Sequence record: OQ174501.1
Length of the DNA stretch: 64,000 nucleotides
DNA from: Escherichia phage REP2
Direction: 5' to 3' (one strand)
In this document: piece after piece, positions 4,500 through 27,699 of the stretch
How positions within the stretch are numbered: the first letter of the stretch is position 1
How the letters are laid out: each line of letters begins with the position of its first letter
Translations under genes and position numbers: made by a program
The notes under the pieces: generated by a model
The model's input: the letters and a program-made list of their open reading frames with translations, nothing else
What the model was told of the DNA's origin: nothing
The model's database searches: none

Positions 4500-5438
4500 A
4501 TGTACAATATTAAATGCCTGACCAAAAACGAACAAGCTGAAATTGTTAAGCTGTATTCAAGTGGTAATTACACCCAACAGGAATTGGCTGATTGGCAAGG
4601 TGTATCGGTTGACACAATCCGTCGTGTTTTGAAAAATGCTGAAGAAGCTAAACGCTCTAAAGTTACTATTAGCGGTGACATTACAGTTAAAGTTAATAGC
4701 GATGCAGTTATTGCTCCAGTTGCTAAATCTGACATTATTTGGAATGCATCTAAAAAATTCATTTCAATTACTGTTGACGGTGTAACTTATAACGCAACTC
4801 CTAATACTCATTCAAACTTCCAGGAAATTCTTAATCTGCTCGTAGCAGATAAGTTAGAAGAAGCGGCACAAAAAATTAATGTTCGTCGCGCTGTTGAAAA
4901 ATATATTTCCGGCGATGTTCGAATTGAAGGCGGAAGCTTGTTCTATCAAAATATCGAATTACGGTCTGGTTTAGTTGATCGTATTCTCGATTCGATGGAA
5001 AAAGGCGAAAACTTTGAATTTTATTTTCCATTCTTGGAAAATTTGTTGGAAAACCCAAGCCAAAAAGCGGTATCTCGACTCTTTGATTTCTTGGTAGCAA
5101 ATGATATTGAAATTACAGAAGATGGTTACTTCTATGCTTGGAAAGTAGTTCGCAGCAATTACTTTGACTGTCATTCAAATACTTTTGATAACAGTCCTGG
5201 TAAAGTAGTTAAAATGCCACGTACTCGTGTGAATGACGATGATACACAAACTTGTTCTCGTGGTCTGCATGTGTGTTCTAAATCTTATATTCGTCACTTT
5301 GGCAGTTCAACCAGCCGAGTTGTAAAAGTTAAAGTACATCCGCGTGATGTAGTATCAATTCCGATTGATTACAACGATGCTAAAATGCGTACCTGTCAAT
5401 ACGAAGTAGTTGAAGACGTTACTGAACAATTTAAATAA
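4500..5438 (+). CDS. rIIB: rIIB protein
   Basis: 312 codons, same length as T4 rIIB; immediately follows rIIA with RBS AAGGAAA. Confidence 0.9.
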   Translation: MYNIKCLTKNEQAEIVKLYSSGNYTQQELADWQGVSVDTIRRVLKNAEEAKRSKVTISGDITVKVNSDAVIAPVAKSDIIWNASKKFISITVDGVTYNATPNTHSNFQEILNLLVADKLEEAAQKINVRRAVEKYISGDVRIEGGSLFYQNIELRSGLVDRILDSMEKGENFEFYFPFLENLLENPSQKAVSRLFDFLVANDIEITEDGYFYAWKVVRSNYFDCHSNTFDNSPGKVVKMPRTRVNDDDTQTCSRGLHVCSKSYIRHFGSSTSRVVKVKVHPRDVVSIPIDYNDAKMRTCQYEVVEDVTEQFK

Positions 5439-5452
5439 GGGCTTCGGCCCTT
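5437..5452 (+). other. Stable UUCG-tetraloop hairpin (AAGGGC-TTCG-GCCCTT), no U-tract
   Basis: Perfect 6-bp stem with TTCG loop after the rIIB stop; followed by an RBS rather than a T-run. Confidence 0.5.
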
Positions 5453-5466
5453 AACTAAGGAAAATT

Positions 5467-5661
5467 ATGTTAGGTTATCAAGCACGAGTAAAAGAAGAAT
5501 ACGATCAATTAATGCTCAAAATTAATGCACTGAGCAAATTTTTAGAAAGCGCAAAGTTTCTAACAGTTAGTGCAGTTGAGCAAGAACTGTTACTTTCGCA
5601 GTTTATCTCAATGAAATCTTATGCTGACTGTTTAGAGAAAAGAATTGAACAATTCAAATAA
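5467..5661 (+). CDS. Hypothetical protein
   Basis: 64-codon ORF with RBS AAGGAAA; flanked by hairpins. Confidence 0.45.
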   Translation: MLGYQARVKEEYDQLMLKINALSKFLESAKFLTVSAVEQELLLSQFISMKSYADCLEKRIEQFK

Positions 5662-5671
5662 ATAAATAAAT

Positions 5672-5695
5672 AAGGGCTTCGGCCCTTTTGTTTTA
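5672..5695 (+). terminator. Rho-independent terminator (AAGGGC-TTCG-GCCCTT then TTTTGTTTT)
   Basis: Perfect stem with UUCG loop followed by a T-rich run. Confidence 0.7.
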
Positions 5696-5704
5696 AGGTA
5701 AATT

Positions 5705-6034
5705 ATGATTTATTGTATGAATATCGGTGACACCGACATAAAAGAAATTTCTCTACATGGTAATCATTACGCTAATATTGTGTACTGCAATAAATTCGAG
5801 TTTGGGCATGAAAAACTTGGAGTTCTTTACTGCAATGATGTTATAGTCATGGACAAAAAGAATCTCGATGAACTTGATCGTAATTCTTTAGATGAAAATG
5901 ATCGAATTTACTATGGTACTCTTAAAGTGTATAACGCTTATCTTAGTGGTAAAAAGGAAAGTTTAAATGCAGAAAACGAATCCGGGGTTACAGAGACTAT
6001 TTCAGATTCCGACATTTACCCTATCGAACAGTGA
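5705..6034 (+). CDS. Hypothetical protein
   Basis: 109-codon ORF; its 3' end overlaps the next ORF by 68 nt, so one of the two boundaries is uncertain. Confidence 0.4.
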   Translation: MIYCMNIGDTDIKEISLHGNHYANIVYCNKFEFGHEKLGVLYCNDVIVMDKKNLDELDRNSLDENDRIYYGTLKVYNAYLSGKKESLNAENESGVTETISDSDIYPIEQ

Positions 6035-6524
6035 CTTGACTAGTGAAATGAAGGTCAAAATTGCTGATACAGCAAGATACTCTTTAAAACAAAACCCGAA
6101 CCAGGATAAAGCAGAAGTTATTGAAAGATGTCGTATCGCGGTGTACGCAGAGTTTTTTGTAGCAGATTGGCTAAACGGGTATGTTAACAAAGGACAAGAG
6201 GATGTTAATGACCCGTATACATACGCATGGGATGTATTGGCGCATCCAAGATACTGCGGGCTTCGTGTAGAAGTTAAGACACATCAAACTGACTCGCGTT
6301 GGATTTCTGTAACAACAGGATGCAGCGGAGAGTATCCATACGGTTCTGGAATAAATCTAGGGCCCATTCTGAATCATCAGGTCGCTGACTGTATAATTAT
6401 ATTCAACACTAAAGAAATTCACCCAGGTGTCATCCAGTACACTCCGAAGTTCATCGGTGATAGAGAAGACCTTCGTAAGGTTGTAAGAAAAAGCAACTAC
6501 AACGGATGGTATCTTTCCATTTAA
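5967..6524 (+). CDS. denB: Putative endonuclease IV (DenB-like)
   Basis: 185 codons, the length I recall for T4 DenB; lies between rIIB and ndd as in T4. Identity rests on size and synteny only. Confidence 0.45.
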   Translation: MQKTNPGLQRLFQIPTFTLSNSDLTSEMKVKIADTARYSLKQNPNQDKAEVIERCRIAVYAEFFVADWLNGYVNKGQEDVNDPYTYAWDVLAHPRYCGLRVEVKTHQTDSRWISVTTGCSGEYPYGSGINLGPILNHQVADCIIIFNTKEIHPGVIQYTPKFIGDREDLRKVVRKSNYNGWYLSI

Positions 6525-6540
6525 AAATTTTCACAAAACG

Positions 6541-6570
6541 GTTTACATACCACAAGGACCGTGGTACTAT
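6541..6570 (+). promoter_or_regulatory. T4-type early promoter
   Basis: A-rich upstream, GTTTAC at 6541-6546, 18-nt spacer, TGgTACTAT at 6562-6570. Confidence 0.6.
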
Positions 6571-6604
6571 ACAACTATCAACTGATACGGATTTGGAGAG
6601 TAAA

Positions 6605-6868
6605 ATGAAATTTAAATTTTATTATGCTAAGCATAAAATAACTGATGAGTTTGTGTCAGTTGAATATTCTAGCGATGATGAAGGCATGATTTATACTCGC
6701 TTAGGATTATCGCATTGGGAGTCCGATCAGCCTTATTTTTCAACTCCTGAAGAAATTACACGCTTAGTTAATGGTCATATGAATGACCACTGGAATGTAA
6801 TTCTTTCAGATAGTCTTAAAGCGGCTATTAATAGTAATGAAATGAAAATCGCTGAGATTGAACTATGA
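6605..6868 (+). CDS. Hypothetical protein (87 aa)
   Basis: ATG at 6605 preceded by GGAGAG; the listed ORF start at 6506 lies inside the promoter and is rejected. Confidence 0.5.
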   Translation: MKFKFYYAKHKITDEFVSVEYSSDDEGMIYTRLGLSHWESDQPYFSTPEEITRLVNGHMNDHWNVILSDSLKAAINSNEMKIAEIEL

Positions 6869-6951
6869 GTTCACTATGGTGGTGTTTTGTTTGGTTAATT
6901 AGTATTCCAGTAATTTGTTTAACATTTACTTTTGTGATGAGGTTATTATGA
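6865..6951 (+). CDS. Tiny hydrophobic peptide (28 aa, MSSLWWCFVWLISIPVICLTFTFVMRLL)
   Basis: ATGA overlap with the upstream stop; a single predicted transmembrane helix; sits where T4 carries its ndd.x small ORFs. Confidence 0.3.
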   Translation: MSSLWWCFVWLISIPVICLTFTFVMRLL

Positions 6952-7046
6952 AAATTTTTAATTCTGTACTTATTGCTTGTGCGTGGTGGGTTGCACAAGT
7001 TTCGGCAGTAGTGATTGGTATTCACATTTATTACGAATATTTTTAA
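6948..7046 (+). CDS. Tiny hydrophobic peptide (32 aa, MKIFNSVLIACAWWVAQVSAVVIGIHIYYEYF)
   Basis: ATGA overlap with the previous peptide; hydrophobic core. Confidence 0.3.
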   Translation: MKIFNSVLIACAWWVAQVSAVVIGIHIYYEYF

Positions 7047-7053
7047 AAAAGTT

Positions 7054-7083
7054 GTTTACAAGACTGTTCTTCCGTGGTACTAT
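7054..7083 (+). promoter_or_regulatory. T4-type early promoter
   Basis: GTTTAC at 7054-7059, 18-nt spacer, TGgTACTAT with -10 at 7078-7083. Confidence 0.6.
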
Positions 7084-7111
7084 TACCCTATCAACTACGG
7101 AGGAACAGAAA

Positions 7112-7225
7112 ATGAAAAAGATTGTTAAAGCTATATGGAATGTAGTTATAATACTAATAGTTTTGAGTATATTCCCAATCGTTTTAATGATTGATGTATT
7201 AAACGCTTACTTTGGATTTATGTGA
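7112..7225 (+). CDS. Small membrane peptide (37 aa)
   Basis: ATG at 7112 preceded by GGAGG; translation MKKIVKAIWNVVIILIVLSIFPIVLMIDVLNAYFGFM. Confidence 0.4.
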   Translation: MKKIVKAIWNVVIILIVLSIFPIVLMIDVLNAYFGFM

Positions 7226-7232
7226 GGAAAAT

Positions 7233-7430
7233 ATGAAGCGTAAAAGCACTGCGTTTACATTTATTGAATGGTTTTTCGATAATATTTTTCCGGCTTTATT
7301 CATTTTCATGCTGATTTTTGCCTTAGGTTCAGTTGTAGTTGGAATCTATTTGATGGCGGTAGTTGGAATGGACATTCATCAAAATGGTTTAAAATCCGTG
7401 GTTGAAACAATTTGGAATGGTGTAAAATGA
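7233..7430 (+). CDS. Small membrane protein (65 aa)
   Basis: ATG at 7233 after GAGGAAA; two hydrophobic segments. Confidence 0.4.
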   Translation: MKRKSTAFTFIEWFFDNIFPALFIFMLIFALGSVVVGIYLMAVVGMDIHQNGLKSVVETIWNGVK

Positions 7431-7537
7431 TGAATTTGCTGAGCGGTTGGTTTTATATTCTTATGTTTTACATTGGCGCAAATTTCCCATATTGGATGGG
7501 ATGGTCAACAACTGCGTTTGGATTTTATACTCCTTGA
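7427..7537 (+). CDS. Tiny hydrophobic peptide (36 aa)
   Basis: ATGATG start overlapping the previous stop; translation MMNLLSGWFYILMFYIGANFPYWMGWSTTAFGFYTP. Confidence 0.3.
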   Translation: MMNLLSGWFYILMFYIGANFPYWMGWSTTAFGFYTP

Positions 7538-7545
7538 GGTGAATT

Positions 7546-7761
7546 ATGAAAATCTTTAAAGATGTAAAAGTTGGTGAAATTTTTTGTTTAGATAATGGTG
7601 ATCAGTTAATTCGTATTTCACCTCTTAAGAGCACTAGCGAGAAACCGACAGTTAATGCTACTTTAGCAAATAACAGTAATGAACGTTTCTGTATTGAAAA
7701 TGATACTGAAACTTATACTGTAGAAGAGTTTTGGGAATTGAGCGTCGACTGCGACGATTAA
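7546..7761 (+). CDS. Hypothetical protein (71 aa)
   Basis: ORF preceded by GAGGTGAA. Confidence 0.45.
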
Positions 7762-7767
7762 TTTAAT

Positions 7768-7787
7768 GGCCGCGTATTCATGCGGCC
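7768..7787 (+). other. Hairpin GGCCGC-GTATTCAT-GCGGCC upstream of ndd
   Basis: Perfect 6-bp GC stem with 8-nt loop; no U-tract; followed by the ndd RBS. Confidence 0.4.
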
Positions 7788-7819
7788 TTGGAGTAGAAAA
7801 TAATTTAGAGGAAATTAAT

Positions 7820-8278
7820 ATGAAATACATGACTGTTACTGATCTGAACAACGCAGGCGCTACTGTTATTGGTACAATCAAGGGTGGTGAGTGGTTTTTA
7901 GGAACTCCGCATAAAGATATTTTATCTAAACCTGGATTTTACTTTTTAGTAAGTAAATTAGATGGTCGTCCATTTAGTAATCCATGTGTGTCTGCACGAT
8001 TTTATGTAGGTAATCAGCGTTCTAAGCAAGGATTCAGTACAGTTCTAAGTCATATTCGTCAACGTCGGTCTCAGCTTGCACGTACTATTGCAAATAACAA
8101 TATGGTATACACAGTATTTTATCTGCCTGCTTCTAAGATGAAACCTCTGACGACAGGATTTGGTAAAGGTCAGTTAGCTTTGGCGTTTACCCGTAATCAT
8201 CATTCCGAGTATCAAACACTTGAAGAAATGAACCGTATGTTGGCTGATAACTTTAAATTCGTTTTGCAGGCATATTAA
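7820..8278 (+). CDS. ndd: Nucleoid disruption protein Ndd
   Basis: Translation [18 protein letters not shown]... matches T4 Ndd as recalled; about 152 codons; RBS GAGGAAA. Confidence 0.85.
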
Positions 8279-8358
8279 TGAGTAATTTCCACAACGAACA
8301 CGTGATGCAGTTCTATCGTAATAATCTTAAAACTAAAGGCGTCTTCGGACGCCAGTGA
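8278..8358 (+). CDS. stp: Stp peptide (26 aa, activator of the host anticodon nuclease)
   Basis: Not in the ORF track (too short). Translation [26 protein letters not shown] read from sequence; TAATG overlap with ndd; order ndd-stp-ac-52 as in T4. Confidence 0.75.
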
Positions 8359-8365
8359 GGAAAAT

Positions 8366-8524
8366 ATGAATATTGCAAAATTATTAGGAGTTATTTCATT
8401 TATTTGTTGGATAGTAGCATGTGTTTTAACTATCTGTATTGATGCCAGCAGTGTGTTTTCGCAAGCTTTAGCTCAGGGTATGTGTGCATATTTAACATTT
8501 GTGTTGTTATCTACTAATGATTAA
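8366..8524 (+). CDS. ac: Ac-like small membrane protein (acriflavine sensitivity)
   Basis: 52 codons, hydrophobic (MNIAKLLGVISFICWIVACVLTICIDASSVF...); RBS GAGGAAAA; position between stp and 52. Confidence 0.6.
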   Translation: MNIAKLLGVISFICWIVACVLTICIDASSVFSQALAQGMCAYLTFVLLSTND

Positions 8525-8657
8525 GAAAATCTTGGGCTATTCATTAGCCCTTGCTATTTTATTGATAGCATTATATTACGGAATAATGTTCGGATTAATT
8601 CAAGTCGTGCTTTTCATTTCTGATGTTATTATGGCACTACATTCACTAGTATGGTAA
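8517..8657 (+). CDS. Small membrane protein (46 aa)
   Basis: ORF overlapping the ac 3' end; hydrophobic (MIKKILGYSLALAILLIALYYGIMFGLIQVVLF...). Confidence 0.35.
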   Translation: MIKKILGYSLALAILLIALYYGIMFGLIQVVLFISDVIMALHSLVW

Positions 8658-8661
8658 ATTT

Positions 8662-9990
8662 ATGCAACTGAATAATCGTGATTTAAAAAGTATCATTGAT
8701 AATGAAGCATTGGCTTATGCTATGTACACGGTTGAAAATCGTGCTATCCCAAATATGATTGATGGATTTAAGCCAGTTCAACGATTTGTTATTGCTCGAG
8801 CTCTTGATTTGGCACGAGGAAATAAAGATAAGTTTCACAAACTCGCTTCTATTGCAGGTGGTGTAGCAGACCTTGGATATCATCATGGTGAAAACTCTGC
8901 ACAAGACGCAGGTGCTTTGATGGCTAATACTTGGAATAATAACTTTCCTCTGTTAGATGGTCAAGGAAACTTTGGTTCTCGTACCGTTCAAAAAGCAGCG
9001 GCAAGTCGTTATATTTTTGCTCGTGTAAGTAAAAATTTCTATAGCGTATATAAAGATACTGAATATGCTCCGGTACATCAAGATAAAGAACACATTCCGC
9101 CTGCTTTCTATTTGCCTATTATTCCTACTGTTCTTCTTAATGGTGTTTCCGGTATTGCAACTGGTTATGCAACTTATATTCTTCCTCATAGTGTTTCTTC
9201 TGTCAAGAAAGCTGTATTGCAAGCTCTTCAAGGAAAGAAAGTAACTAAACCGAAGGTAGAATTTCCAGAATTTCGCGGTGAAGTCGTTGAAATTGACGGT
9301 CAATATGAAATTCGTGGAACGTACAAGTTTACTTCACGAACTCAAATGCATATCACTGAGATTCCGTATAAGTATGATCGTGAAACTTACGTGAGCAAAA
9401 TTTTAGACCCGCTTGAAGATAAAGGCTTTATTACGTGGGATGATGCTTGCGGTGAGCATGGGTTTGGCTTTAAAGTTAAATTCCGTAAAGAATACTCTTT
9501 GAGCGATAACGAAGAAGAACGCCATGCAAAAATTATGAAAGACTTCGGGTTGATTGAGCGTCGTTCCCAGAATATTACCGTCATTAATGAGAAAGGAAAG
9601 CTGCAAGTTTACGATAATGTAGTTGATTTAATCAAAGACTTCGTTGAAGTTCGTAAAACTTATGTCCAAAAACGAATTGATAACAAAATCAAAGAAACTG
9701 AATCAGCATTTCGTTTAGCCTTTGCCAAGGCGCATTTCATTAAGAAAGTAATTTCAGGTGAAATTGTTGTGCAGGGTAAAACTCGCAAAGAACTGACCGA
9801 AGAACTTTCTAAAATTGATATGTATTCTTCTTATGTTGATAAACTAGTCGGAATGAATATTTTTCATATGACTTCCGACGAAGCAAAGAAACTTGCTGAA
9901 GAAGCTAAAGCTAAGAAAGAAGAAAACGAATATTGGAAAACTACTGATGTAGTTACCGAATACACTAAAGATTTAGAGGAAATCAAATGA
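8662..9990 (+). CDS. 52: DNA topoisomerase II medium subunit (GyrA-like)
   Basis: 442 codons, same as T4 gp52; N-terminal region resembles the GyrA breakage-reunion domain. Confidence 0.9.
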   Translation: MQLNNRDLKSIIDNEALAYAMYTVENRAIPNMIDGFKPVQRFVIARALDLARGNKDKFHKLASIAGGVADLGYHHGENSAQDAGALMANTWNNNFPLLDGQGNFGSRTVQKAAASRYIFARVSKNFYSVYKDTEYAPVHQDKEHIPPAFYLPIIPTVLLNGVSGIATGYATYILPHSVSSVKKAVLQALQGKKVTKPKVEFPEFRGEVVEIDGQYEIRGTYKFTSRTQMHITEIPYKYDRETYVSKILDPLEDKGFITWDDACGEHGFGFKVKFRKEYSLSDNEEERHAKIMKDFGLIERRSQNITVINEKGKLQVYDNVVDLIKDFVEVRKTYVQKRIDNKIKETESAFRLAFAKAHFIKKVISGEIVVQGKTRKELTEELSKIDMYSSYVDKLVGMNIFHMTSDEAKKLAEEAKAKKEENEYWKTTDVVTEYTKDLEEIK

Positions 9991-10136
9991 GTCCATTCAT
10001 AGGTATTACAAGCGCTGCATTAGTATCTGGTGGCATTTTACTGGCGGGTTTAGGTGTTGTTCCTGCCGTAGCAGGAGGTCTTCTTGCGTTCGGAATTCAA
10101 CGTGTTATCATGATAGTTATCACAGTCATGCAGTAA
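9987..10136 (+). CDS. Small membrane protein (49 aa)
   Basis: ATGA overlap with the gene 52 stop; Gly/Ala-rich hydrophobic peptide; terminator follows. Confidence 0.35.
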   Translation: MSPFIGITSAALVSGGILLAGLGVVPAVAGGLLAFGIQRVIMIVITVMQ

Positions 10137-10141
10137 TTTTA

Positions 10142-10171
10142 GGGAGAGCCTCGGCTCTCCCTTTTTTATTT
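10142..10171 (+). terminator. Rho-independent terminator (GGGAGAGCC...GGCTCTCCC then TTTTTTATTTT)
   Basis: 8-9 bp GC-rich stem followed by a strong T-run. Confidence 0.85.
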
Positions 10172-10191
10172 TAAAATTTTTTCACAAAACG

Positions 10192-10221
10192 GTTTACAAC
10201 CAAAGCATACTGTGGTACTAT
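10192..10221 (+). promoter_or_regulatory. T4-type early promoter
   Basis: A-rich upstream, GTTTAC at 10192-10197, 18-nt spacer, TGgTACTAT at 10212-10221. Confidence 0.6.
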
Positions 10222-10225
10222 ACAA

Positions 10226-10248
10226 CTATCAAATAAATGAACTGAAAC
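10226..10248 (+). repeat. 23-nt leader repeat CTATCAAATAAATGAACTGAAAC, copy 1
   Basis: Identical to 10571-10593; both copies start just downstream of an early-promoter -10. Confidence 0.7.
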
Positions 10249-27195: not shown

Positions 27196-27561
27196 ATGTA
27201 TATTGGCAAAAAGTATGAGCTTGTTCCAAGACTTATTGATACATTTATTAATTATCGCCCACGTTCTAATTCATCAATAGTTAAAATTATTCAAGAAAAT
27301 GGTGGATGGTTTGAAGTTAAAGAAGCTTTCTTTGTTGATGGATTTAGAGTAATAAAACACATTGAATGCGCAAATGGAAAGCATTTTTACTTTAACGTTT
27401 GTGAAGACGAATTTCATTGTTTCCGCGAATATAAAGAACCTACTTCTGAAGAGGATGAAGTTAAAGACAAGGTTTCTGGCGTAACAAAAATTCACTGCAT
27501 TGTTGACGAAAATAATGTAGATGAAATCATTGAACTTTTGCGAAAAACTTTCAAAAAGTAG
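27196..27561 (+). CDS. Hypothetical protein (121 aa)
   Basis: ORF with RBS GAGGAAAA. Confidence 0.5.
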   Translation: MYIGKKYELVPRLIDTFINYRPRSNSSIVKIIQENGGWFEVKEAFFVDGFRVIKHIECANGKHFYFNVCEDEFHCFREYKEPTSEEDEVKDKVSGVTKIHCIVDENNVDEIIELLRKTFKK

Positions 27562-27590
27562 TTTACAACAGGGTAGTAGTGTGATACTAT
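27561..27590 (+). promoter_or_regulatory. T4-type early promoter embedded in a 10-bp palindrome
   Basis: GTTTAC at 27561-27566, TGaTACTAT at 27582-27590; GGGTAGTAGT (27571-80) pairs with ACTATTACCC (27586-95). Confidence 0.55.
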
Positions 27591-27619
27591 TACCCTATCA
27601 AAACTAATGGAGAAAAGAA

Positions 27620-27688
27620 AATGTTCGCACCTTATATTATGGCAGCAGTTATGTTGGTCTGTTTATATCTTTTGATTAAAGCTTGCTA
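27620..27688 (+). CDS. Tiny hydrophobic peptide (22 aa, MFAPYIMAAVMLVCLYLLIKAC)
   Basis: ATG 7 nt after GGAGAAAAGAAA; not in the ORF track. Confidence 0.3.
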
Positions 27689-27699
27689 AGGAGAATAAA

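Follow-up and report, generated by a model that had tools for sequence, protein, structure and literature searches.

The stretch of DNA analysed here, called the window below, is 64,000 nucleotides of one strand from Escherichia phage REP2 (OQ174501.1), and our subject is a run of five small open reading frames (ORFs) at positions 6865-7537, between denB and ndd. The five lie consecutively on the + strand and have 28, 32, 37, 65 and 36 codons, exactly the sizes given for them in the original prediction. That prediction had also placed the run at the position of the small ndd.x ORFs of phage T4, and the match turns out to be exact, gene by gene. The five genes, the two early promoters that serve them and their immediate neighbours are as follows.

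6865..6951, + strand: ndd.6, 28 aa, ATG start, one hydrophobic segment (MSSLWWCFVWLISIPVICLTFTFVMRLL); phrog_8851, E=1.6e-17.
6948..7046, + strand: ndd.5, 32 aa, one hydrophobic segment, GAGG ribosome-binding site (RBS) 6 nt upstream; phrog_5011, E=9e-26.
7112..7225, + strand: ndd.4, 37 aa, Lys-rich N-terminus and one predicted transmembrane segment, GGAGG RBS; phrog_3098, E=4e-21.
7233..7430, + strand: gene for a 65-aa protein (T4 'ndd.3' plus 'ndd.2a'); Pfam DUF7248, phrog_2401.
7427..7537, + strand: ndd.2, 36 aa (35 aa from the ATG at 7430), aromatic-rich and uncharged; phrog_4135, E=1.7e-24.
6541..6570, + strand: early promoter between denB and orf87, GTTTAC-N14-TGGTACTAT, an exact pattern match; serves orf87, ndd.6 and ndd.5.
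7054..7083, + strand: early promoter in the spacer between ndd.5 and ndd.4, GTTTAC-N14-TGGTAYWAT; serves ndd.4, the 65-aa gene, ndd.2 and ndd.1.
6605..6868, + strand: orf87, soluble acidic 87-aa protein without a T4 counterpart, phrog_2390; its stop overlaps the ndd.6 start (ATGA).
7546..7761, + strand: ndd.1, 71-aa soluble acidic protein, phrog_2183; closes the small-gene block before ndd.
7820-8278, + strand: ndd, downstream of the small-gene block.

A 1.5-kb query (window positions 6400-7900) was 100% identical, in reverse-complement orientation, to Escherichia phage REP3 (OQ174502, Tequatrovirus), and 90-99% identical to about 490 other T4-like genomes, with 94-99% for the Tequatrovirus genomes. 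The comparison genomes are GenBank phage records; a scan of IMG/VR gave only 5 loci. When the window is read against the REP3 and T4 records, the order on the + strand is rIIA, rIIB, two small ORFs, denB, orf87, ndd.6, ndd.5, ndd.4, the 65-codon gene, ndd.2, ndd.1, ndd, stp, ac, 52.1, gene 52 and motA.1, and the order denB, ndd.6, ndd.5, promoter, ndd.4, 65-aa gene, ndd.2, ndd.1, ndd is identical in T4 and 17 other Tequatrovirus loci. All five peptides match family profiles that cover the whole peptide (PHROGs 8851, 5011, 3098, 2401 and 4135, with E-values from 1.6e-17 to 1.8e-29), and the supplement of the CRISPRi-ART study lists T4 ndd.2 as PHROG 4135, ndd.2a as 2401 and ndd.4 as 3098 (PMC11879866). 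Judged by their sequences, the ORFs at 6865-7537 are orthologues of T4 ndd.6, ndd.5, ndd.4, ndd.3+ndd.2a and ndd.2, which they resemble in order, strand, position between denB and ndd, protein identity (94-100%), PHROG families and early-promoter arrangement. One difference from T4 is an extra 87-codon gene between denB and ndd.6 in the window, of which T4 has just about the last 10 codons. The ndd.2-ndd.6 block is already known, having long been annotated in the T4 reference with its products labelled as predicted membrane proteins, and its presence in a close relative is expected. Miller et al. 2003 are cited for having predicted from hydrophobicity that these ORFs encode membrane proteins. 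The REP3 GenBank record carries no annotation for ndd.6.

Stop/start ATGA overlaps occur at two junctions of the run (6948-6951 and 7427-7430), a gap of 7 nt lies between ndd.4 and the 65-codon gene, and the sole real spacer, the 65 nt at 7047-7111, bears a promoter. Four of the genes have a Shine-Dalgarno sequence at canonical spacing, GGAGG before ndd.4, GAGG before both ndd.5 and the 65-codon gene and, less strong, GGTG before ndd.2, while the start of ndd.6 depends on its overlap with the orf87 stop codon. In about half of 15 related genomes ATA stands in place of the first of the two ndd.2 ATGs (7427), and the second, at 7430, is the conserved start.

That these ORFs are genes is indicated first by the density of reading frames. 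Of the 673 nt, 89% is taken up by ATG ORFs of 28 codons or more on the same strand, a figure equalled in 1 of 2000 dinucleotide-preserving shuffles, and at least five such ORFs appeared in 1% of shuffles. For a test of selection the run was aligned across 16 Tequatrovirus genomes and variant alleles were counted, against a neutral synonymous fraction of 0.20. Pooled over the five genes, 46 synonymous and 29 nonsynonymous alleles were found (P=9e-15), which corresponds to a ratio of nonsynonymous to synonymous substitution rates (dN/dS) of about 0.16; the other two forward frames of the same stretches gave 0.74 and 1.76, neither significant. Gene by gene, the counts were as follows.

ndd.6: 4 synonymous, 3 nonsynonymous; P 0.03.
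ndd.5: 9 synonymous, 4 nonsynonymous; P 2e-4; the nonsynonymous changes are conservative.
ndd.4: 0 synonymous, 3 nonsynonymous; no power (3 variable sites).
65-codon gene: 23 synonymous, 7 nonsynonymous; P 8e-11.
ndd.2: 10 synonymous, 12 nonsynonymous; P 5e-3.

Between genera, ndd.4 has the pattern of a coding gene, the proportion of nonsynonymous differences (pN) being 0.21-0.24 and that of synonymous differences (pS) 0.67-0.90. A further comparison is with L020, a divergent T4-like metagenomic contig in which gp52 is 66% identical and silent sites are saturated. Here Ndd.4 is 65% identical (pN 0.21, pS 0.90), the 65-aa protein 58% identical (pN 0.24, pS 0.74) and Ndd.2 45% identical with an alignment z of 9, so that pN ranges over 0.21-0.37 and pS over 0.74-0.90 for the three. 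By this sequence measure, Ndd.4 and the 65-aa protein are about as conserved as the essential topoisomerase subunit gp52. The Dhakaviruses JS10 and QL01 have an Ndd.4 homologue of 58% identity and, downstream of their orf87 homologue, a 29-aa Ndd.6 homologue of 46% identity with the motif WC..W...IPVIC..F; the orf87/ndd.6 ATGA overlap is kept in the window and JS10, and QL01 has TTG for that ATG. Only ndd.5 was without a homologue outside Tequatrovirus in our searches. A single-frame tblastn match to the 65-aa protein over at least 80% of its length is present in 496 of 499 records. Wider searches placed the 65-aa protein in 8 clusters among 5.8 billion proteins and Ndd.4 in 6 clusters among 1.84 billion representative proteins (6-7 across searches); they find only close relatives, and hence context outside the T4-like phages gives no functional hint.

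The ndd.4 DNA is far more uniform than that of its neighbours, being at least 99% identical in 312 of 494 records, as against 31 of 493 for ndd.2. An RNA element as the source of this nucleotide conservation was rejected, as Rfam gave no match, the ndd.4 leader lacks structure and synonymous sites are saturated between genera. Given that saturation, the ndd.4 sequences of the genus seem to be alike through recent common descent or gene conversion, which suggests a recent sweep or gene conversion of a promoter-linked cassette and not a constraint at the level of RNA. Apparent inactivating changes were seen in three genomes. In T2 (901-1098 of its locus, L019) codon 33 of the 65-codon gene is a stop codon, EC121 (L014) has a 2-nt insertion in ndd.2 near window position 7482, and ESh36 (L013, an UNVERIFIED record) has a 1-nt homopolymer insertion in the 65-codon gene near window position 7390; these may be real losses or sequencing errors.

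Alignment of the run also bears on the T4 reference annotation. In NC_000866 (L002, ~166622-166628) the sequence is ATGAACGTAAACGC, whereas T4 strain 147 and clone 7t1 have ATGAAGCGTAAACGC. The reference is thus one G short at codon 2/3 of the 65-codon gene, reading ATGAACGT vs ATGAAGCGT (window 7233-7240), and the base is present in strain 147, clone 7t1, the window and 13 other aligned genomes. With the G absent, the first 26 codons are read out of frame, and T4 'ndd.3' is the resulting frameshift artefact; 'ndd.2a' corresponds to the C-terminal 40 residues of a single protein of 65. In keeping with an artefact, ndd.3 is a PHROG singleton without a UniProt entry (PMC9697503, PMC11879866). 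A second correction concerns Ndd.4, annotated in T4 with 42 codons; the ATG used there is ACG in 14 of 15 other genomes and adjoins the GGAGG Shine-Dalgarno sequence (window 7097-7114). The alignment suggests that the T4 start is probably annotated 5 codons too early and that the 37-codon form is the conserved one. Errors of the T4 reference have spread into derived screens and databases, and both the omics and the CRISPRi-ART tables list ndd.3 as a separate gene.

Early promoters were searched for with the pattern GTTTAC-N(11-15)-TGGTAYWAT, and this extended T4 early-promoter pattern has five occurrences in the window, as against zero in shuffles. The sites homologous to both promoters of the list are annotated T4 early promoters in phage SA21RB. 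Two promoters had been described as embedded in the run; the one at 7054-7083 does lie inside it, but the other nearby one, at 6541-6570, lies ~295 nt upstream, ahead of orf87 and outside 6865-7537. In a dual RNA-seq and proteomics study of T4 (PMC9697503, Table S2), ndd.2, ndd.2a, ndd.3, ndd.4, ndd.5 and ndd.6 are all early transcripts, and Ndd and Ndd.1 are early both as transcript and as protein. It can be proposed that host sigma-70 RNA polymerase would produce polycistronic mRNAs from the two T4-type early promoters in the first minutes of infection, with orf87-ndd.6-ndd.5 and ndd.4-65aa-ndd.2-ndd.1 as the putative transcription units, and that translation would proceed from the strong Shine-Dalgarno sites or by ATGA stop/start coupling. 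Taken together, the five ORFs are conserved, selected, early-transcribed genes, ndd.6 being the weakest case of the five.

The products were examined for membrane segments by the Kyte-Doolittle scale with a 19-residue window and a threshold of 1.6. The maxima are 2.33 for ndd.6, 2.18 for ndd.5, 3.06 for ndd.4 and 2.71 for the 65-aa protein. One or two transmembrane helices had been claimed for each peptide; one segment is found in four of them, but there is no room for two in any, and Ndd.2 stays below the threshold. The broader description of the genes as hydrophobic, early and uncharacterised agrees with the hydrophobicity profile, the position of the genes downstream of early promoters and the early class of the T4 transcripts. 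Among + strand ATG ORFs of 25-80 aa in the 64-kb window, just five pair a Shine-Dalgarno sequence with a hydrophobic segment; all five lie within 6.9-10.1 kb, three of them in the run.

The 65-aa protein has a KRK N-terminus, an amphipathic helix at residues 6-17, a Pro kink, a transmembrane helix and a conserved C-terminal tail, NGLKSVVETIWNGVK. Its AlphaFold2 model (predicted local distance difference test score, pLDDT, 80.7) has helices at 6-17 and 19-64, so that the 40-residue window that passes the hydrophobicity threshold is modelled as an amphipathic helix of 12 residues and, after a proline, a single long helix. Basic residues stand at the N-termini of Ndd.4 (K2, K3, K6) and of the 65-aa protein (K2, R3, K4), and by the positive-inside rule both N-termini would be cytoplasmic (N-in). 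The conserved motifs, KAIWN and SIFPIV..ID in Ndd.4 and FIEWFFDNIFP and NGLKSVxETxWNG.K in the 65-aa protein, lie in the flanks of the transmembrane segment, whose core diverges. Ndd.2 has 12 aromatic residues among its 36 and zero charged ones, and is probably interfacial. We infer that the five products are inner-membrane microproteins of 28-65 residues with a single helix inserted.

Family databases place the peptides without assigning them a role. The 65-aa protein matches DUF7248 (PF23906) with 69 bits over residues 13-63 (E=3.4e-19; gathering threshold 27 bits), and PF23906 is present on all eight of its database homologues. PF26889 (Phage_T4_Y16N) is pre-annotated on proteins 92-98% identical to Ndd.4 and on the L020 homologue; a direct Pfam search with the 37-aa peptide gave no match, and PF26889 is possibly absent from that Pfam copy. 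Against Pfam, PHROGs and NCBIfam none of the five matched Imm/Sp, holin/antiholin or toxin families, and only families of 'unknown function' were returned. An Rfam scan of the region at E<=1 gave a single chance-level match (13 bits vs a gathering score of 88). The labels found in GenBank and PHROG, 'outer membrane protein' for ndd.5 and ndd.6 and 'periplasmic protein' for the 65-aa gene, were set aside as unsupported localisation predictions. A lipoprotein reading of Ndd.5 was likewise rejected, for its L-I-A-C motif at residues 8-11 is preceded by a signal region of just 10 residues.

Bacteria possess small inner-membrane regulators that offer a model for such products, namely AcrZ-AcrB, MgtS-MgtA, MgrB-PhoQ, SgrT-PtsG and PmrR-LpxT. 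The ndd.x peptides would resemble them in a length of 28-65 residues, a single transmembrane helix, a basic cytoplasmic N-terminus and conservation of juxtamembrane motifs; they differ in having no sequence relationship to them and in being phage-encoded and expressed only in infection, so that the likeness is one of functional analogy and not of membership. By that analogy, the transmembrane helix and the short conserved juxtamembrane motifs of each peptide may serve to bind a larger inner-membrane protein of the host, and the binding could tune envelope physiology early in infection. We lean towards the view that the run comprises five genuine early, dispensable accessory genes for single-pass inner-membrane microproteins acting on host envelope proteins.

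Published deletions give the best-grounded candidate process for such an activity, the phage-encoded stimulation of phospholipid and phosphatidylglycerol synthesis. The T4 deletion sa-delta-9 takes out ~3.4 kb, from 52.1 through denB, with ac, stp, ndd and ndd.1-ndd.6 between them. Its phage yield is still 50% of wild type, and phospholipid synthesis is no longer stimulated after infection. In rII-delta-DD2, which overlaps it in part, the stimulation of phosphatidylglycerol is lost, and the authors remark that a number of the interval's genes have predicted membrane proteins as products (PMC6071114). With this lipid phenotype mapped to the region, modulation of phospholipid synthesis is the role that can be tested most concretely. 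The narrower proposal, that one of the microproteins is the early T4 factor that raises phosphatidylglycerol by acting through its transmembrane helix on an inner-membrane enzyme of lipid synthesis, is a rather unlikely one to hold as it stands. Its lead candidates would be Ndd.4, near-invariant in ~490 Tequatroviruses, and the 65-aa DUF7248 protein, whose conserved motifs stand on either side of the membrane. If true, phages would have in this lipid factor an equivalent of small-peptide regulators like PmrR-LpxT.

Several observations weigh against the preferred reading of five membrane microproteins with a role at the host envelope. None of the five proteins was detected in time-resolved shotgun proteomics of T4 (class NA; PMC9697503). 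By inspection, this non-detection is uninformative for four of them, because tryptic digestion of each yields a single fragment of 26-36 residues that is very hydrophobic; a usable tryptic peptide, SVVETIWNGVK, exists for the 65-aa protein, which was undetected as well. Knock-down by RNA-targeting dCas13d scored every ndd.x gene as 'Not Fit', i.e. without a fitness effect in the laboratory host (PMC11879866). The hydrophobicity threshold is also passed by 15-23% of all short ATG ORFs in the window, such frames arising often by chance in so T-rich a genome, which makes hydrophobicity alone weak evidence, and Ndd.2, at 1.17, falls under the transmembrane threshold altogether. For ndd.6 the evidence of selection is thin, with 7 variable sites, a +1 frame that scores as well and a dN/dS of 0.5 vs JS10. 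Finally, the lipid phenotype spans ~12 genes, including ndd, denB, ac and 52.1, and the strains are multiply mutant; with ~12 genes in the interval the prior for any one of the five is low. A literature search for T4 ribosome profiling returned no T4 study among the matches listed, and the toxicity-screen paper and the anti-defence screen preprint hold no data on these genes.

Purifying selection together with cross-genus conservation of four of the five genes justifies experiments despite the silent proteomics and knock-downs. T4-induced phosphatidylglycerol stimulation could become assignable by small clean deletions within the ~12-gene interval. Of the five products, Ndd.4 and the 65-aa DUF7248 protein rank as the most constrained candidates with clear conserved motifs. 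The roles named in the original prediction, i.e. host takeover, superinfection exclusion and modulation of the lysis clock, found no sequence support, since Pfam, PHROGs and NCBIfam give only 'unknown function', and the knock-down null and the lipid phenotype, the only one mapped to the deletable 52-rIIB region, mean that the literature points away from all three.

Among the other explanations, the one that survives best is that the peptides serve counter-defence or trigger defence, neutralising membrane-associated abortive-infection systems of the host or of prophages, or being sensed by them, with a value that would be felt only on natural hosts. They share an early accessory block with rIIA/rIIB and stp; rII counters the membrane-acting RexAB, and Stp acts on EcoprrI/PrrC. 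The lack of a fitness effect in a defence-poor laboratory strain, combined with purifying selection in nature, is what such genes would show, and gene content that varies between lineages is typical of arms-race genes. We nevertheless regard this explanation as unlikely. No similarity to known anti-defence families emerged from Pfam, PHROGs or NCBIfam, the conservative substitutions and low dN/dS are unlike the diversifying pattern often seen in arms-race proteins, and Ndd.4 is near-invariant across ~490 phages from many different hosts.

Alternatively, some of the five, chiefly ndd.6 and possibly ndd.5 or ndd.2, could be non-functional, either ORFs that serve coupling or mRNA stability or chance frames in T-rich sequence. 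The missing protein products, the equal hydrophobicity of 15-23% of short ORFs, the omission of ndd.6 by the REP3 annotators, and its few informative sites with an equally constrained +1 frame all fit this idea, as do the lack of an ndd.5 homologue outside Tequatrovirus and the 2-nt insertion in EC121 ndd.2. Each of the three genes, however, has something to set against it. The start, length and WC..W...IPVIC..F motif of ndd.6 are kept in Dhakavirus at 46% identity; ndd.5 has 9 synonymous vs 4 conservative changes (P=2e-4) and a strong RBS; and ndd.2 has its homologue in L020 (z=9). We therefore find it quite unlikely.

Superinfection-exclusion or injection-blocking proteins of the Imm or Sp kind, which would alter the inner membrane or periplasm against the DNA of later phages, would suit the early expression and membrane location of the peptides, and the conserved tail of the 65-aa protein is predicted to be periplasmic. 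In T4, exclusion is genetically accounted for by imm and sp, both of which lie elsewhere in the genome (sp at T4 19.7 kb). The peptides have no sequence match to the Imm or Sp families in Pfam, PHROGs or NCBIfam, and the deletion literature examined reports no exclusion defect for viable 52-rIIB deletions, leaving this a distinctly improbable role. The case for a part in lysis timing, as antiholin-like peptides or holin partners adjusting the lysis clock or lysis inhibition, is weaker still and, in our estimation, hardly credible; holin/antiholin systems are typically small single-pass membrane proteins and rIIA/rIIB are neighbours, but lysis is a late function and these transcripts are early only, the families of holin (T4 T), RI and RIII gave no match in Pfam or PHROGs, and sa-delta-9 is viable at 50% yield with no rapid-lysis phenotype reported in the literature examined. 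Least credible of all are type I toxin-like peptides that would depolarise the membrane in the manner of Hok, TisB or Ibs and so aid host shut-off, for early T4 infection depends on an energised membrane, a series of five distinct depolarisers would be redundant, and the region has neither a toxin family match (Pfam, NCBIfam) nor an Rfam RNA family, hence no known antitoxin RNA. What speaks for them is a similar size and hydrophobicity, and the observation that many small early T4 genes are lethal when cloned, according to the review by Kutter and colleagues (PMC6071114).

The gene content of the run differs between lineages. The gene orf87 precedes ndd.6 in the window and most relatives, and some have an additional 68-codon gene. 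The orf87 locus lies at 6605-6868 in the window; the corresponding positions are 1246-1509 in the aligned loci L012 and L016 and ~277-305 in L017/L018. T4 is without both orf87 and the 68-codon gene, and its retention of about the last ten orf87 codons indicates that T4 lost orf87 by deletion. HY03 and F1 carry an orf87 allele that is just 53-56% identical, in a flanking context that is 92-100% identical. In L020 an orf87 homologue is present and the order is ndd.4, orf87, ndd.2, 65-aa gene, and the Dhakaviruses are without ndd.5, the 65-aa gene and ndd.2. Two in-frame fusions were also found. In Shigella phage Sf25 (P0007), Ndd.4(1-30) is fused to the last 31 residues of the 65-aa protein; in a 151.8-kb T4 record (P0008), Ndd.5(1-21) is fused to the last 22 residues of that 65-aa protein. 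Both fusion proteins are products of deletions within the run.

A 62-nt repeat family occurs at 6520-6581, 7033-7094 and 10171-10232, and both promoters of the run lie inside its copies. This repeated early-promoter cassette flanking small genes, with indels and allele swaps adjoining the copies, recalls the promoter-early stem-loop (PeSL) elements of T4-type phages (Arbiol et al. 2010; PMC4122927), and the ndd.4/.5 segment has been given as an example of PeSL-mediated exchange in these phages (Comeau et al. 2014, Fig. 6A; PMC4122927). What the run shares with PeSLs is a repeated early promoter with a Shine-Dalgarno sequence adjoining variable ORFs. It differs in that the stem-loop directly upstream of the promoter is missing from its two cassettes, where no significant structure was found (z -1.0 at 6480-6545; z -0.2 at 6995-7058) and a terminator scan returned nothing. 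At the third copy the upstream hairpin is strong (z -4.1 at 10125-10195), and within 10141-10221 the early promoter comes straight after a strong terminator hairpin, which makes a complete PeSL. The run is apparently a recombination-prone accessory region whose gene content differs between lineages by way of the repeated early-promoter cassettes.

Other small hydrophobic peptides of the window had been described as similar to those of the run. Ac (8366-8524), gp52.1 (8517-8657) and MotA.1 (9987-10136) do exist and are likewise small, hydrophobic and on the same strand, all within 3.3 kb, and T4 ac is an early transcript (PMC9697503). The similarity is one of composition only; none of them is homologous to any of the five, alignments being at shuffle expectation, and each belongs to a separate PHROG family, all of unknown function. 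Ac alone of these three has a genetic phenotype, sensitivity or resistance to acridine dyes (PMC6071114). Paralogy among the small peptides was rejected, as no pair reached z>3 vs shuffles in local alignment, and KAIWNVV in Ndd.4 and ETIWNGV in the 65-aa protein, though alike, are too short to be taken as evidence. An identical 16-nt RBS and start (GTGAGGAAAATATGAA) is shared by the 65-codon gene (7222-7237) and ac (8355-8370), and it is a possible substrate for deletion by short-homology recombination. The last of the peptides named as similar, placed at 27620, begins at 27621.

27621-27689: unannotated small ORF of 22 codons, hydrophobic (MFAPYIMAAVMLVCLYLLIKAC), with an early promoter at 27561-27590 and a GGAG RBS.

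This ORF has no PHROG family match and is unannotated in the REP3 record; the stretch 27561-27689 is 95-100% identical in 196 phage records.

Upstream of the run, a 109-codon ORF at 5705-6034 runs into the long, 185-aa reading of denB at 5967-6524, overlapping its first 27 codons. The REP3 record starts denB at 6048 (158 aa), while in T4 and HY03 denB is annotated with 185 aa and the 109-codon ORF is not annotated, so that two alternative architectures appear to exist upstream of denB. Further upstream, two identical 21-nt copies that contain a GC-rich hairpin (TAAATAAGGGCTTCGGCCCTT), at 5432-5452 and 5667-5687, bracket a 64-codon ORF at 5467-5661, which looks like a cassette bounded by terminators.

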